NCBI GenBank assembly: GCA_046726415.1
Contig: JBKPAK010000122.1
Location: 1-24,494, forward strand
Origin: Candidatus Methylomirabilota bacterium
GTDB lineage: Bacteria; Methylomirabilota; Methylomirabilia; Rokubacteriales; CSP1-6
Direction: 5' to 3'
DNA length: 24,494 nucleotides
Shown: positions 4,384 to 18,589 of the stretch, piece after piece
Numbering within the stretch: the stretch's first letter is position 1
Layout of the letters: every line of letters begins with the position of its first letter
Program-made: the position numbers and the translations under genes
The notes under the pieces: generated by a model
The model's database searches: none
Told to the model about the DNA's origin: nothing
The model's input: only the letters and a program-made list of their open reading frames with translations

Positions 4384-4511
4384 CGCCCCGGCCCCCTCGA
4401 CCAGGCCACCCGCGGTGCACCCCGAGCAGGCGCTCCGATGAATCGACGCCCCGGCCCCCTCGACCAGGCCACCCGCGGTGCACCCCGAGCAGGCGCTCCG
4501 AATGGATCGAC
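4382..4511. repeat. Two near-identical tandem copies of a 63 bp unit between tctA and the molybdoprotein gene
   Basis: GACGCCCCGGCCCCCTCGACCAGGCCACCCGCGGTGCACCCCGAGCAGGCGCTCCGA at 4382 and 4445. Confidence 0.92.
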
Positions 4512-4539
4512 GGCGCCAATCCCGGAGGGTTTCTAACTC

Positions 4540-13395: not shown

Positions 13396-14157
13396 CTACT
13401 TCCGGTCGGGGCTGGCCATGGCCGCCAGCGACTCTTTGATGGTCGGTGCTTTGCCGCCCTCGACGTCGCGTCGTCGGATCCGATGGAACCCGGTGAGAAT
13501 CTCGTTGGCCCGGGCCAGCTCGGCGACGCGCTGGGCGAACGGTTCGAGGCGCTCGCCGGGGATGGCGTAGAGCGCCACGTCGTCGGTCATGACATCGAGG
13601 TACGCGCGAGCTCCACAGCACCCAAGGCTCAGGGCCGTGCGTCCTGTGTTCTTGGCTTGCGGGACGATGGCGCACGCCGGGCGTCCCATGGCCGGCGGCA
13701 GCCCGCCTTCTAGCGACTGCGAGGCTTCGGAAAGGATGAGCGTCTGGTCGGCGCGCACGAAGAGCAGAACGACGTCGGGCGCCAGCGGCGCCTCGGCGAG
13801 CGGCCCGTAGACGACGAAGGCCGGACGTCGCGCCAACACCGGGATGCCCGGAATGTCCTCGGGACGCACGTAACCCAGCTCGGCGAAGACGTGAAGCGCG
13901 TCGCGGCGATCGACCTCGTGCGCGGAGGTGATGGCGAGGTTGTGGGTGAACGTCCCGATGGCGCAGAGATCGTGATCCTTCGGCCCGGTGACGAAGGTGC
14001 GCGTGGCCGCCTCCTGCCAGAAACGACACCCGGCGGGAACGCGACCGGCGAAGCCTGGTACGCCGGCCGGCGGCGCGTCCGCGAAGGACATGGCCAGGGG
14101 CGGTTGCCTCAACTTCAAAGCGGTCGTCAGAGTTGACGCGATCTTCCTCACCGACAT
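13396..14157 (-). CDS. DUF169-like Cys-rich protein, 253 aa (alternative GTG start at 14196)
   Basis: L.L...PLA start, GCRFWQEA, LCAIG, YGPL....L.PDVV, GRPACA, SLGCCGAR; GAAAGGAG SD before ATG 14157. Confidence 0.75.
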   Translation of the reverse strand: MSVRKIASTLTTALKLRQPPLAMSFADAPPAGVPGFAGRVPAGCRFWQEAATRTFVTGPKDHDLCAIGTFTHNLAITSAHEVDRRDALHVFAELGYVRPEDIPGIPVLARRPAFVVYGPLAEAPLAPDVVLLFVRADQTLILSEASQSLEGGLPPAMGRPACAIVPQAKNTGRTALSLGCCGARAYLDVMTDDVALYAIPGERLEPFAQRVAELARANEILTGFHRIRRRDVEGGKAPTIKESLAAMASPDRK

Positions 14158-14185
14158 CGGCGTGACTCTCCTTTCAGGGGCGATC

Positions 14186-15481
14186 TCATCGCTCACCTCG
14201 GGGCGCGTGTGCCGACGAACCCTCGGTCCTCCCGCCGCTCGCTCGCCCGCGGTCGTCGATCTCGAATTCGAGGCGCGCGTGGGCCGCGCGGAGCGCCGCC
14301 TCCACCTCGGCCGGACTCTCGGCCAGGGCGAAGATGAAACCGAGGTATTGCCAGCCCTCCGGCAGCGGGATCAGGGCTTGGTCGACGTGTGCCGAGATCA
14401 CCACGTCTTCGATGCCGGCCACCGCACGGGCGGCGTCCAATCCATGCACGGCGCGCAGCTGCCCGGCCCGCGGGATCGGAATCATCATGACGCCGGCGGC
14501 GCGTCCCGCGCGCTCGGTCGACTCGAGGGGCCAGCCGAGGGCGTGGCGGAGAATCAACTCCTCCAGGCTCATGCCTGTCCCGAAGCGCAGAGTGCGCGAG
14601 CAGAGGCCGCCGATCGAGCGCGCGGCCACCTCGACGACCCAGGGCCCATCGTCGTTCACGCGGAGTTCGGCGTGCACCGGGCCCTCGGTGAGGCCGAGGG
14701 CGGCGCCGGCCTCGGCCGCGGCGGCGGCGATTGCCTTCTGCACGGAATCGGGAAGCCGCGACGGCGTGACGTAGAGCGTCTCCTCGAAGAAGGGCCCGTC
14801 CAGAGGATCGGGCTTGTCGAAGAGGGCGAGGACGCGAAAGTCGCCACCGACCACCAGGCCCTCGAGGGCCACCTCCGCACCGGGGACGAACACCTCGACG
14901 AGCACCGCGCGCTGCCCCTCGTCGGCCACCGCCACGTCGGCGCTGTCCAGGATGGTTCGAATGCGCTCGACCGCGGCCACGAACTGGGGGGGATCGTCGG
15001 CGCGGATCACCCCGCGGCTGGCTGAGAGCGTCAACGGCTTGACCACGCACGGATAGTCTATGGCGCGCGCGACGGCCGCGTGGTCCGCATCAAGGTTGAC
15101 GAGCCTGAAGGCCGGTTGCCGTACGCCGGCGACGGCGAGGCGCTCGCGCATGAGGTGCTTGTTTCGGGCCGCGGCGGCGGAAGCGATGGAGTTCGCCCTG
15201 AGGCCGAGGCGGGCGGCGATGGCGGCAGCGACCAGGGTTGCCCGATCATCCACGCCCACCACCGCACTGAGGGGACGACGTGCGGCAAACTGGGCGACCG
15301 CCGCCGCGGCGCCTTCGGGATCGGCAAAGTTAACCGTCAGGAGATGGTCGGGATCGAACGGTTCGAAGGCGCTGGGCATCTCCGACGCGCAGACCAGGTC
15401 GACGCCCAGCCCGCGCGCCGCCTCGACGAAGTCCTCGGTGCGGTAGGTCGTGGTCGGCAAGAGGAGCAGCAGGCGATCCAC
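14186..15481 (-). CDS. ATP-grasp ligase, L-amino-acid-ligase-like, 431 aa
   Basis: ARNKHLMRERL, YPCVVKPLTLSASRGV, LVEVFVPGAEVALEG, GPVHAELR, EVAARSIGG; GTG start at 15481 with GAGGGG SD. Confidence 0.88.
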   Translation of the reverse strand: MDRLLLLLPTTTYRTEDFVEAARGLGVDLVCASEMPSAFEPFDPDHLLTVNFADPEGAAAAVAQFAARRPLSAVVGVDDRATLVAAAIAARLGLRANSIASAAAARNKHLMRERLAVAGVRQPAFRLVNLDADHAAVARAIDYPCVVKPLTLSASRGVIRADDPPQFVAAVERIRTILDSADVAVADEGQRAVLVEVFVPGAEVALEGLVVGGDFRVLALFDKPDPLDGPFFEETLYVTPSRLPDSVQKAIAAAAAEAGAALGLTEGPVHAELRVNDDGPWVVEVAARSIGGLCSRTLRFGTGMSLEELILRHALGWPLESTERAGRAAGVMMIPIPRAGQLRAVHGLDAARAVAGIEDVVISAHVDQALIPLPEGWQYLGFIFALAESPAEVEAALRAAHARLEFEIDDRGRASGGRTEGSSAHAPRGER

Positions 15482-15506: not shown

Positions 15507-15788
15507 TCAGGCCTTACCGGGCGTGTAGTACGGGTTGGAGCCCGCCGCGTGATCGGTGGTGTCAACCACCTCCCCGACCTCGGGGATCTCATCCTTGATG
15601 AGGCGCTCAATGCCGGCCTTGAGCGTCACGTCGGACATGCCGCAGCCCTGGCAACCGCCCCCGAGCTGGAGATATACGCGATCGTCCTGCACGTCGATCA
15701 GCTCGACGAAGCCCCCGTGACCGGCCACGGCGGGGTTGATCATAGTGTCGATGAGATCCTGGACCCTCGTCTTGAGATCGTCGCTCAT
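15507..15788 (-). CDS. NifU-C/NfuA-type Fe-S cluster carrier protein, 93 aa
   Basis: INPAVAGHGGFVEL, LGGGCQGC (CxxC), TLKAGIE, DTTDH..G.NPYY; AAGGAGGTGA SD before ATG 15788. Confidence 0.9.
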   Translation of the reverse strand: MSDDLKTRVQDLIDTMINPAVAGHGGFVELIDVQDDRVYLQLGGGCQGCGMSDVTLKAGIERLIKDEIPEVGEVVDTTDHAAGSNPYYTPGKA

Positions 15789-15801: not shown

Positions 15802-17223
15802 TCACACAGGTACTGTAACTGACTTTCCCGTGAGGGCCAACTGGCCCTCGGTGGGCTCCGCTCAGCAAAACCACGGCTCGCTGAGCCGCGGAGCCCGCGT
15901 CCGCGGCTCGAGCCGCGTTGCCCCCCGACGGGGGGAAAGTCCGGCCGCGCCATCGGCGACCGCCACGATCCGGCCAAACGTCGTCACCGAGTCCTCCCCG
16001 GCGGTCGCGGCCTCCGTCACCAGGGTCGTCACGTCGCGGTGCAGCCGCTCCATGACGGGATCCCGATGCGTCCACTCGTAGTAGAAGTCCTCGGCGACGA
16101 GTCGGCCGAGATAGGGACGCATGGCGGGATTCCCGGCGAGGAGGGAGCCGGGAGGAACCAGGAGCCGGATGGAGAACTGCACGGGATCGACCGCATCGAT
16201 CAGCCCCTCGCGCTCCACGAAATCGAGCATATCGCGGTAGTCGCCGAGCGTGGTCCAGGGCGTGAAGGGCACCCATGTTGGCCGCAGGGTCATCCCGGCC
16301 GCGCGCACCGCGCGAAGCACCTCGAACACGTCGCTCCGCGTATGGCCTTTGGCGAGGTGACCTAGAACGGTCTCGCTCAGCGACTCCACCGCGGACACGA
16401 TGAAGAGACAGCCGGCCTCGGCCAGCTCGCCCAATCGGTGGCGGTGCCGCAGGAGGTGCTCGACCTTGGTCGTGATGTCGAATGTCACGTGCGGGAACGC
16501 GCCATGAACACCGTGGGCCACCATAAATGCGTGGCCGGGACCGTTCAGGAAGTCGGGGTCGCCGAACGTGATGTGTGTGGCGCCTGCCTCCACGAGCTGG
16601 CGCACGTCGGCGAGCACCACCTGTCGTGGAACGACGAAGAAGCGACCGCCATAGATCGGCGGGATGGGGCAGTGCGCGCACAGATGCCGGCAGCCGCGGC
16701 TCGCCTCGACGTAGCCGGCCAGCTCCTGGCGTCCATCGCGTTCGAGACGAGCATATTTCTTGAGCGACGGCAGGCCATGACGGCTCGGGGTCGGGAAGAC
16801 GAGCTTCTCGAGCCGGGGGTCGATGCGGGCGCCGTTCTCGCGCGCGCGCTCGAGGTTCTCCACGAGCTGGACCAGCGCCTGCTCCACCTCTCCGGCCAGG
16901 AGGGAGTCGACGCCCCGCGACCTCAGATACTCGGCGTTGAGTGTCGCGTAGAGCCCAAAGAACGCGAGATGACAGCCGGGATTGATCTCGCGCACTCGCT
17001 CCGCGACGCGAATGCCCAGGCGCAGCGCGGTATGCATGGGCACGGAGACGGCGACCAGCCGGGCCCGGCGCACCTTGTCGGGATCGAACGGCTCCACCGA
17101 TAAGTCCATGACCGCGGGCTTGTAACCGTGGCGCTCGAGGAATGCGGCTGGCCACGCCAAGGTCAAGGGCTGGTGGCCCATTTCGTAGCACGCGACAAGC
17201 ACAATTGCGCCCGGCTCTCGCAT
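15802..17223 (-). CDS. CUAEP-tail radical SAM selenoprotein with N-terminal B12-binding-like domain, 473 aa, Sec at residue 454 (UGA 15862-15864)
   Basis: EASRGCRHLCAHC (CxxxCxxC); N-terminal YEMGHQPL...DLSV...SVPMHTA domain; reading through UGA gives ...EPWFC-U-AEPTEGQLALTGKSVTVPV* ending 13 bp before the NfuA-type gene; SECIS-like hairpin follows. Confidence 0.88.
15827..15855 (-). promoter_or_regulatory. Bacterial SECIS-like hairpin
   Basis: mRNA UGA-GCGGAG-CCC-ACC-GAGGGCC-AGUU-GGCCCUC-AC-GGG: 7 bp perfect upper stem, 4 nt loop with G at position 2 followed by U, loop 19 nt after the UGA. Confidence 0.8.
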
Positions 17224-17308: not shown

Positions 17309-17500
17309 ATGACCGTCAAGATTGCCTGTCGTCCCAACGGCCCTTACCTGATCGAGGGCGAGGTCGAGGTCTACGACCCCGCCGGGAACAAGATCGATAC
17401 CAGCTCGCGTCCCCGCATCGCCCTGTGTCGCTGCGGCGGCGCAGCCTCGAAGCCCTTCTGCGACGGCACGCACAACAAGATCGCCTTCCAGGCGAGCTGA
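17309..17500 (+). CDS. CDGSH iron-sulfur domain protein, 63 aa
   Basis: NGPYLI; LCRCGGAASKPFCDGTH (CxC...PxCDG(S/T)H); AGGAGG SD. Confidence 0.9.
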   Translation: MTVKIACRPNGPYLIEGEVEVYDPAGNKIDTSSRPRIALCRCGGAASKPFCDGTHNKIAFQAS

Positions 17501-17503
17501 TGA

Positions 17504-17675
17504 GATGGGGGGCCTCGAAAGGGCCCCCCAAGGCCCCCAGCGCTCGTCGCGCCCCGGGGAACCCGGAGCGCTCCTCGATACCGCGCGAGGTATGGGAGGG
17601 CCGACGCGGCTGGGCGCGTGCTCCTGGAGGCTTTCCCAAGCCCCCGCGGTCGTCGCGCCCCGCGGAACTCGCGCT
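17504..17675. repeat. REP-like GC-rich palindromic element plus a degenerate second copy between convergent genes
   Basis: TGGGGGGCC-N7-GGCCCCCCA hairpin at 17506-17530; CCCAAG(G)CCCCC..TCGTCGCGCCCCG.GGAAC occurs at about 17527 and 17635. Confidence 0.7.
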
Positions 17676-17684
17676 GAAGCGGCG

Positions 17685-18266
17685 TCACCGCACCTGGCGA
17701 CGTGCCTCCAGGAGGAGTGCCGCCATGTCCTCGAGGAGGCGCATGACCTCCGGTCCTGTGCTCCGCCACGGTCCGGCCACGACGCGCTCCGTCTGCCACA
17801 CTGTCGCGGGGAAGGGACGCGGTACTCCGGACAGCGTCACCGTCCGTTCCACACTGAGCCGGAGAGCGCCAACCCCGTAGGTGCCGGAGAAGGGAAGCCA
17901 GAATCCACGCAGGGTGGTGGCGTTCACGGGGCGCACCAGCACGGCGAGTCGCACGCGATCGGGCGCCGAATCCTGGACGGCCAGCGCGGGTTCGGCACCG
18001 CGCAGCAGCTCCTCGAGGCGGACAAGCACGTCTTCGATCGGGAAGTCATCGAGTGGCGCCTCGAGATCGAGGCTCACGGCGACCCGCCGGAGACCGGCCA
18101 GCCCCACCGGGTCATCCGCTGCCTCGGCGCGCGCCAGGAGCAGGTCGGCCCCCCATCTCACCTGACAAGCCAGAACGATGGCGAGCGCGGGCAGCGCGAC
18201 GGCGATGACCAGCGCCGCCGAATGCCACCGTCGCCTGGCAAGTCGCACTCTGCCCTCCAGGGGCAT
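17685..18266 (-). CDS. Hypothetical membrane-anchored or exported protein, about 193 aa
   Basis: N-terminal basic region and hydrophobic helix (AALVIAVALPALAIVLAC), then a globular-looking domain; GAGGA upstream of ATG 18266; start uncertain. Confidence 0.6.
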   Translation of the reverse strand: MPLEGRVRLARRRWHSAALVIAVALPALAIVLACQVRWGADLLLARAEAADDPVGLAGLRRVAVSLDLEAPLDDFPIEDVLVRLEELLRGAEPALAVQDSAPDRVRLAVLVRPVNATTLRGFWLPFSGTYGVGALRLSVERTVTLSGVPRPFPATVWQTERVVAGPWRSTGPEVMRLLEDMAALLLEARRQVR

Positions 18267-18368
18267 GCCATGTCCTCGGGCGGAGGCTCCGCGGGCCGGT
18301 ATTGTATCGGAGGGGCGGATCGAGCCGCGAGCGGCCGGTGTCCAATTGATTGGAGGGAGCAGGCGTGC

Positions 18369-18589
18369 GAGCTGGAAATACGACCATCTCGTCGTCGCCC
18401 TCGGCAGGATGACGAGCTTCCGCGCCGCGCCGAGGCTCGCCGAGCCTGCGCTGGATGCACGTATCTCGGCGACGCGCTGGCCATCTGCAACCACGTCATC
18501 CAGAGCCTTCGGAGAGGCCGACATCGGGCCGGATCCAAGTGCGCCAGCGCCTCCTCACCTTTGTCGTGGCGGAAGGCGACTTCTCCGCA
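18369..18589 (+). pseudogene. Degraded internal fragment of a type II NADH dehydrogenase-like FAD oxidoreductase
   Basis: YDHLVVALGRMTSF..PRLAE / YLGDALAICNHVIQSL / EADIGPDP / RQRLLTFVVAEGDFS spread over three frames, matching the NDH-2 order YDxLVxAxG...DAxxxRN...LTFVVxGGG. Confidence 0.72.

Follow-up and report, generated by a model that had tools for sequence, protein, structure and literature searches.

A radical SAM gene on the minus strand of the window (the whole analysed stretch of 24,494 nucleotides from a Candidatus Methylomirabilota bacterium) was found to contain an apparent stop codon which, on comparative evidence, is almost certainly read as selenocysteine. The features of this gene and of its neighbourhood are given below.

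15802..17223, minus strand: CUAEP-tail radical SAM selenoprotein gene (predicted), 473 aa with the UGA read as Sec454
15862..15864, minus strand: in-frame UGA, inferred Sec codon; TGA in 84 and a Cys codon in 23 of 107 loci
15832..15849, minus strand: SECIS-type hairpin, 7-bp stem, AGUU loop at 15842-15839, G at +21
15802..15804, minus strand: true stop UGA with no SECIS-type hairpin after it; the next gene's Shine-Dalgarno-like AGGAGG comes immediately afterwards
15507..15788, minus strand: NifU/NfuA C-terminal-domain protein, 93 aa, likely Fe-S carrier (PF01106, 86.3 bits)
14186..15481, minus strand: ATP-grasp ligase of L-amino-acid-ligase architecture (PF18130, PF13535, PF18603), likely GTG start at 15481
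13396..14196, minus strand: DUF169 protein (PF02596), accessory cassette member, start at 14196 or 14160
17309..17500, plus strand: small CDGSH Fe-S protein, 63 aa, divergent (PF09360)

The reading frame of the CUAEP gene starts with the ATG at 17223 and runs to PWFC, directly after which the TGA at 15864-15862 is placed; the position of this stop after Cys, reported earlier in a sequence-only reading of the same DNA, was confirmed on the minus strand. Nineteen open codons (AEPTEGQLALTGKSVTVPV) follow up to a second TGA at 15804-15802, giving a read-through product of 473 residues, and the NifU-domain gene begins with its ATG at 15788 after an interval of 13 bases (AGGAGGTGACGCC, containing AGGAGG), just as that reading had placed the end of the open frame beside the Shine-Dalgarno sequence of the next gene. 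The product comprises a B12-binding-like domain (8-120), a radical SAM core with the CxxxCxxC motif (C178, C182, C185) and the C453-U454-A-E-P tail. The gene is single-copy in the genome and stands first in a tightly spaced run of radical SAM, NifU-domain, ATP-grasp ligase and DUF169 genes, with the CDGSH gene divergent. A 1757-base contig from the public run X2 spanned the CUAEP gene with 17 differences, and among the differences listed in that comparison (40 of 51) none fell at 15862-15864. The RNA run X20 gave short fragments only, some of them from relatives, and no sigma-70 promoter match was found. Just upstream of the Sec UGA, at 15871-15891 on the minus strand, a 9-pair hairpin with a short U run had a terminator-like score; it lies within coding sequence and is possibly due to chance. 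Elsewhere in the window, a short intergenic repeat-like element at 17501-17566, with very high contig depth at 17476-17600, and a tandem duplication at 4400-4530, visible in spurious ORFs, are both probably REP-like. A 279-aa ORF at 17685-18524 on the minus strand had no match in Pfam or NCBIfam.

The family assignment of the read-through protein was analysed with NCBIfam. The highest score was obtained for NF040546, the CUAEP/CCAEP-tail radical SAM (seleno)protein family that had been named in the sequence-only reading, with 652.9 bits over an equivalog cut-off of 500 and alignment to positions 1-467 of the 468 in the model. The second match was ArsL (NF040542), which failed its cut-off with 314.8 bits against 450, and the third family reached 43.9. 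Every testable family feature, namely the score, the C-[U/C]-A-E-P tail and the CxxxCxxC motif, was present and the protein is assigned by sequence to NF040546 with no family-level differences; relatives also bear NCBI's name for this family (P0019). In the 98 alignment rows C178, C182, C185, E449, W451 and C453 were invariant. In a quick tree the protein paired with a Rokubacteria sequence (support 100), both within a clade of 11 rows from that phylum. The selenocysteine is hidden to gene callers but not to curation: NCBI already catalogues NF040546 as a selenoprotein family, and at family level nothing is new. The family is listed as uncharacterized in the accessible part of Haft and Gwadz (10.1101/2022.07.06.499078), beyond which the literature search returned no relevant paper on it, no biochemistry or published function, and no description of an allele-specific SECIS, a selA link or a co-occurring ATP-grasp ligase. 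Neither CUAEP nor CCAEP occurs in the accessible portion of a 2026 selenoproteome review (PMC13188914), and no paper on Sec in Rokubacteria was among the matches listed.

The codon at the apparent stop was compared in 111 loci, 107 of which showed the W[FY]C motif. The motif was followed by TGA in 84 loci, TGC in 16 and TGT in 7 (Cys in 23), counts which, like those for the hairpin and for selA below, are not independent, as the Sec/Cys label needs 7 changes on the quick tree, of which well-supported branches force only 2; most Cys alleles came from Nitrospirota. The next residues were AEP in 100 loci, SEP in 5 and VEP in 1, one contig ending at this point, so that the check proposed earlier, for homologues with Cys at the UGA and a conserved AEP, gave a positive answer. 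In the phylum of the window 114 of 151 genomes held the gene, and 116 of 122 matches carried one TGA, the remaining 6 stopping before the tail. These comparisons bear on the reading in which translation terminates at the UGA, Cys453 is the last residue and the conservation downstream is an RNA signal for the next gene. Such a reading is difficult to reconcile with Cys codons replacing the UGA in 23 loci and AEP continuing in both allele types, with a site that is only TGA and never TAA or TAG, and with 45 of 150 distant representatives that continue C-C-[AS]-[EAM]-P (the rest comprise 39 that stop at WFC, 6 of ArsL type and 60 either partial or without the motif). It does agree with 118 of 120 database homologues being called as ending at WFC, a figure which also bears out the earlier statement that standard gene callers truncate these proteins. 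As separate observations, the Cys allele of L128 lies on a contig labelled archaeon, beside Nfu and a Mrp/NUBPL gene, which may reflect transfer or mis-binning, and the Cys-allele tails of P0125, P0154, P0157, P0177, P0190, P0202 and others bear extra downstream cysteines, like the Cys packing described for other CU families.

The RNA downstream of the UGA was then considered. In the hairpin GAGGGCC-AGUU-GGCCCUC, counted from the UGA, the two arms of the stem occupy +13 to +19 and +24 to +30, and the loop starts after 19 nt. The length, loop and spacing given in the sequence-only reading were reproduced, while its description as a GC stem needed correction, six of the seven pairs being GC and one A-U. 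The energy was -19.0 kcal/mol, with z of about -2 versus shuffles. The bacterial SECIS model in the available text of PMC13188914 has a loop of 3-9 nt, a stem of 4-16 bp, G in the first two loop positions, a distance of 16-37 nt from the UGA and an MFE of at most -7.5. The hairpin lay within all of these limits (loop 4, stem 7, G second, 19 nt, -19.0) by our own implementation of the published constraints, used in place of bSECISearch; SECIS-type scoring had been suggested as a check, the G early in a small loop being cited as a known feature, and was positive for all four published constraints. Taken alone the hairpin is weak evidence for Sec, because 345 of 5000 synonymous recodings of the tail also yielded 7 pairs and our version of the generic model also fitted 300 of the 1500 ordinary TGA stops drawn from this genome, which has 67.5% GC. 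The exact register of the family was more selective: at least 5 pairs with G at +21 were found at 22 of 2980 TGA stops of long ORFs, and 7 Watson-Crick pairs at 1 of 2980, the CUAEP gene itself being within the tested set and passing. The terminal UGA (15804-15802) tested in the same way showed no such hairpin.

Across the family, a hairpin of at least 5 contiguous pairs was present in 69 of 75 distinct TGA alleles and in 0 of 23 Cys alleles, compared with 13.7 of 75 TGA alleles expected from synonymous recoding. This count allowed a loop of 4 or 5 nt from +20, with one TGA locus dropped as too short and duplicates merged; the two-register rule was chosen after the data were seen and was applied alike to the Cys alleles and the recoding control. 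A fixed register with a 4-nt loop gave the hairpin in only 26 of 75 and was rejected as an under-count, since the family has two registers. Compensatory pairs were seen among the TGA alleles at +18 (C-G 47, U-A 12, G-C 9) and at +17 (G-C 55, A-U 10), and G at +21 was kept in 74 of 75. The loss of the hairpin exactly where the UGA is lost argues against a true stop with a downstream RNA signal.

The genome, which is 98% complete, also holds the machinery for selenocysteine, the presence of selA, selB, selC and selD having been another check put forward earlier. The selA (591.9 bits), selB (374.2) and selD (335.6) matches were all over cut-off and a tRNA-Sec with UCA anticodon was found; selA, selB and tRNA-Sec share one contig and selD lies on another. 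The selD gene (G000:C223:12024, L011) has an in-frame TGA of its own (CAG-U-ASK), after which comes an 8-bp hairpin whose GAUC loop is at +22; the geometry resembles that of the CUAEP gene, and selD represents a second selenoprotein. Formate dehydrogenase was considered for this place and rejected, none of its four matches having an internal stop. Within the phylum selA was present in 133 of 151 genomes. It was detected in 24 of the 27 TGA-allele genomes taken (out of 53 such genomes) versus 6 of 23 Cys-allele genomes, all of unstated completeness, and the 3 TGA-allele genomes in which a selA match was absent would fit termination at the UGA, as would the chance that part of the product may terminate there in vivo. 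On all these observations a true stop is highly improbable. By every sequence criterion the CUAEP gene encodes a predicted bacterial selenoprotein, and the 473 aa read-through product proposed earlier is supported by the TGA/Cys interchange, the hairpin and the sel genes. SelB with Sec-tRNA would, with near certainty in view of the strong comparative evidence, bind the hairpin and insert Sec454 as the first step of the proposed mechanism.

The structure of the protein was modelled with Sec as Cys, using 98 aligned rows of which only 23 extend past C453. The mean pLDDT was 92.5, with about 91 for residues 441-450, about 60 for 451-460 and under 50 for 464-473. Because of these values the arm leading to Cys-Sec appears docked in the model and only the end loose, so that of the vicinal Cys-Sec on a flexible tail proposed earlier the pair stands and the simple flexibility does not. 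The best fold matches were OxsB (5ul4), AprD4 (6fd2; TM 0.68/0.71), TsrM (6wte) and MgmA, which like MiaB showed 15-19% identity; RimO was also among the matches. Such a match shows fold and not chemistry. AprD4, OxsB and TsrM are not known to carry a Cys-Sec tail. A search by sequence for a solved structure of ArsL or of a NF040546 member found none, with 2 weak matches.

These folds fit a second reading, in which the selenoprotein is a canonical 5'-deoxyadenosyl or cobalamin-dependent radical SAM enzyme and Cys-Sec is a redox shuttle reducing the cluster, cobalamin or product. Animal thioredoxin reductase, with its C-terminal Cys-Sec acting as a redox shuttle, provides the analogue. Along with OxsB, AprD4, TsrM and MgmA, the Pfam search is in line with it, giving B12-binding PF02310 (34.8 vs a cut-off of 32.1) in addition to Radical_SAM. 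All B12-dependent families, however, scored below 44 bits with none at cut-off, versus 314.8 for ArsL; ArsL-type proteins carry the same N-terminal B12-binding-like domain, and the word cobalamin has 0 occurrences in the in vitro ArsL preprint. The conserved family-specific residues unlike those of ArsL and the arsenic context that was not seen, both described below, would favour the redox reading again. It is considered rather unlikely, though not negligible.

ArsL is, by sequence, the closest characterised family found for the CUAEP protein. It cleaves SAM to MTA and an ACP species or radical, and its RCCLKC tail binds As(III) and not iron (10.1101/2024.02.01.577332); the ACP chemistry and the As(III)-binding tail are also given in the accessible text of 10.64898/2026.04.29.721666, which cites Mauger et al. 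for single Cys-to-Ala changes that kill ArsL. An 'MCCA' mutant, which to judge by its name would keep only the CC pair, is reported as most active on methylarsenate in the part of PMC13598754 that was available. The two families share the two-domain layout, the CxxxCxxC motif and a vicinal CC or CU near the C-terminus. The CUAEP protein was 34% identical over 411 aa to an over-cut-off ArsL-type protein, and 39 positions were shared, each conserved at 90% or more across 52 family rows and kept in 6 or all 7 of the ArsL-type rows. Cys-Sec aligned with the CC of ArsL CCxxC and the third Cys of ArsL with Pro457; because this alignment has to bridge an insert of some 45 residues and the CC itself anchors it, it does not count as independent evidence of homology. 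A role for Cys12 as third metal ligand, in place of the last Cys of ArsL, was rejected, as this residue is conserved in at least 90% of 98 closer rows but in only 50% of 52 diverse rows.

Differences were also found. The CUAEP protein has no third tail Cys or terminal RCCxxC; ahead of the CU it has some 45 additional residues and the motif RxPRLxExWF, and it bears Sec. Conserved positions also differ (M63-H64-T65 vs L-F-Q/D/E, H184 vs Y, D224 vs E, T321 vs N), which points to another substrate. Its gene has ligase and Nfu partners, and arsenic gene families were seen neither among the neighbour clusters of at least 3 of 81 loci nor among 111 other ORFs within 1.5 kb. By its cut-off, tail motif and context, all read from sequence, the CUAEP protein is not ArsL, though it may work like it. 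An over-cut-off ArsL-type gene was found in a relative of the window's genome (G084; L134:587-4133, G084:C14), after an ArsP permease gene and before that of a CcdA/DsbD membrane protein, and this genome holds both families. An apparent ArsM-type gene, matching PRK11873, lies on another contig. P0239 unites three parts in one chain, a GNAT acetyltransferase, a methyltransferase like ArsM and an ArsL-type radical SAM domain with RCCLRC, possibly a one-chain arsinothricin pathway with self-protection. The selenoproteins SaoB, SaoC, SaoL and HgcA, unrelated to the CUAEP protein, also have a vicinal CU that gene callers truncate. Heavy-metal binding is suggested for CU motifs in the available part of 10.1101/2022.07.06.499078; no SAO or hgc gene cluster was found among the neighbours (clusters of 81 loci and 111 other nearby ORFs).

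The neighbours of the CUAEP gene were counted in 81 loci. The ligase lay nearby in 36 of them, Nfu in 30, including that of the window, which was added by hand, and DUF169 in 25. When only the 42 loci with 4 kb or more on each side were counted, the numbers were 19, 18 and 17 respectively; none of the three was present in 11, and the ligase was absent nearby in 23. The loci with a ligase neighbour come from several phyla. Genome-wide, the ligase was present in 33 of 35 genomes with the CUAEP gene (of 113, chosen across families). Among all 37 genomes that lack the gene it occurred in 12, and among the nine of these with a completeness of 99% or more in none; the compared genomes are related and incomplete. 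The best solved relative of the ligase was the L-amino-acid ligase BL00235 (3vot, E 2e-41), BacD being also close. DUF169 was found in 13 of 28 genomes with the gene versus 1 of 16 without; with only 13 of 28 it was rejected as a core partner and regarded as accessory, and no function for it was found in the literature. One plausible ligase fusion was seen (P0254, a single-member cluster). The long fusions P0272, P0273 and P0274 are out of frame at the junctions, look like frameshift artefacts and are signs of adjacency at most. P0134 joins a CCAEP radical SAM protein to a C-terminal MerB alkylmercury-lyase (C-metal lyase) domain; it is also a single-member cluster and could be a missed stop. 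In the Nitrospira-like loci L065, L074, L082, L110, L118, L119, L126 and L131 a conserved 144-aa convergent ORF follows the ligase (cluster 14).

Several of the neighbours are Fe-S proteins: besides Nfu in 30 of 81 loci, a CDGSH gene was at the same place in 9, all of the window's phylum, a YggX-like gene was near 6, and there were single cases of SufS/SufU/FeS-assembly, Mrp, Rieske and rhodanese genes. Together with MiaB and RimO among the fold matches and a CUAEP gene near-universal in the phylum, they could indicate that the tail provides ligands to an auxiliary Fe-S cluster or is a carrier of sulfane sulfur or selenium, for S/Se insertion or Fe-S upkeep with Nfu, the ligase being a separate step. 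Beyond the core motif, however, the invariant positions are limited to C453 and 454; across 52 diverse rows C12 is kept in half and C272 in 71%, which leaves too few ligands for a second cluster. In addition, the ArsL tail does not bind iron (10.1101/2024.02.01.577332), and cluster delivery alone explains Nfu beside a radical SAM gene. This role of the tail is regarded as improbable.

The preferred reading remains a transfer like that of ArsL. The radical SAM core (PF04055) holds a [4Fe-4S] cluster that cleaves SAM, and NfuA is a cluster donor. In the CUAEP protein the observed motif C178, C182 and C185 would bind this cluster, which its Nfu neighbour likely donates. The ArsL chemistry, the 34% identity, the 39 shared positions and the CU-CC alignment point by homology to SAM being cut at the C-gamma-S bond to give MTA and an ACP species, which is slightly favoured. 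It may equally be or not be that the tail docks on the core so that Cys453-Sec454 presents the acceptor. A trivalent arsenical as acceptor on Cys-Sec is doubtful: the genomic surroundings and the near-universal occurrence in the phylum speak for a housekeeping function, no ars genes were seen nearby and the third Cys of ArsL is missing. The ATP-grasp ligase probably acts in the same pathway, and its use of the ACP product is put forward tentatively. Jointly, these steps, in which SAM donates an aminocarboxypropyl group to a soft heteroatom on Cys-Sec and the ligase carries out peptide ligation or acts in the same pathway, would fall a little short of an even chance on the sequence evidence.

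The presence of the CUAEP gene in 114 of 151 genomes looks like housekeeping and not antibiotic synthesis. The recoding of its apparent stop corrects a routine annotation error which cuts 118 of 120 homologues at the UGA. The family occurs in three quarters of the sampled genomes of an abundant uncultured soil phylum, plus many other phyla, and is the closest relative found here of ArsL, which forms C-As bonds; its natural Cys orthologues are easy to express, and the ligase partner gives a concrete assay. In a speculative and unlikely extension, the radical SAM protein, the L-amino-acid ligase and Nfu would form a widespread undescribed pathway of soil and sediment bacteria, in which Sec forges a carbon-metalloid (arsenic or similar) amino acid from SAM that is built into a small peptide. 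If true, this would be the first case of an organometalloid metabolite made by a selenium-dependent radical SAM enzyme, and the formation of carbon-metalloid bonds via Cys-Sec would give selenium a new role and yield a new metabolite in the environment.
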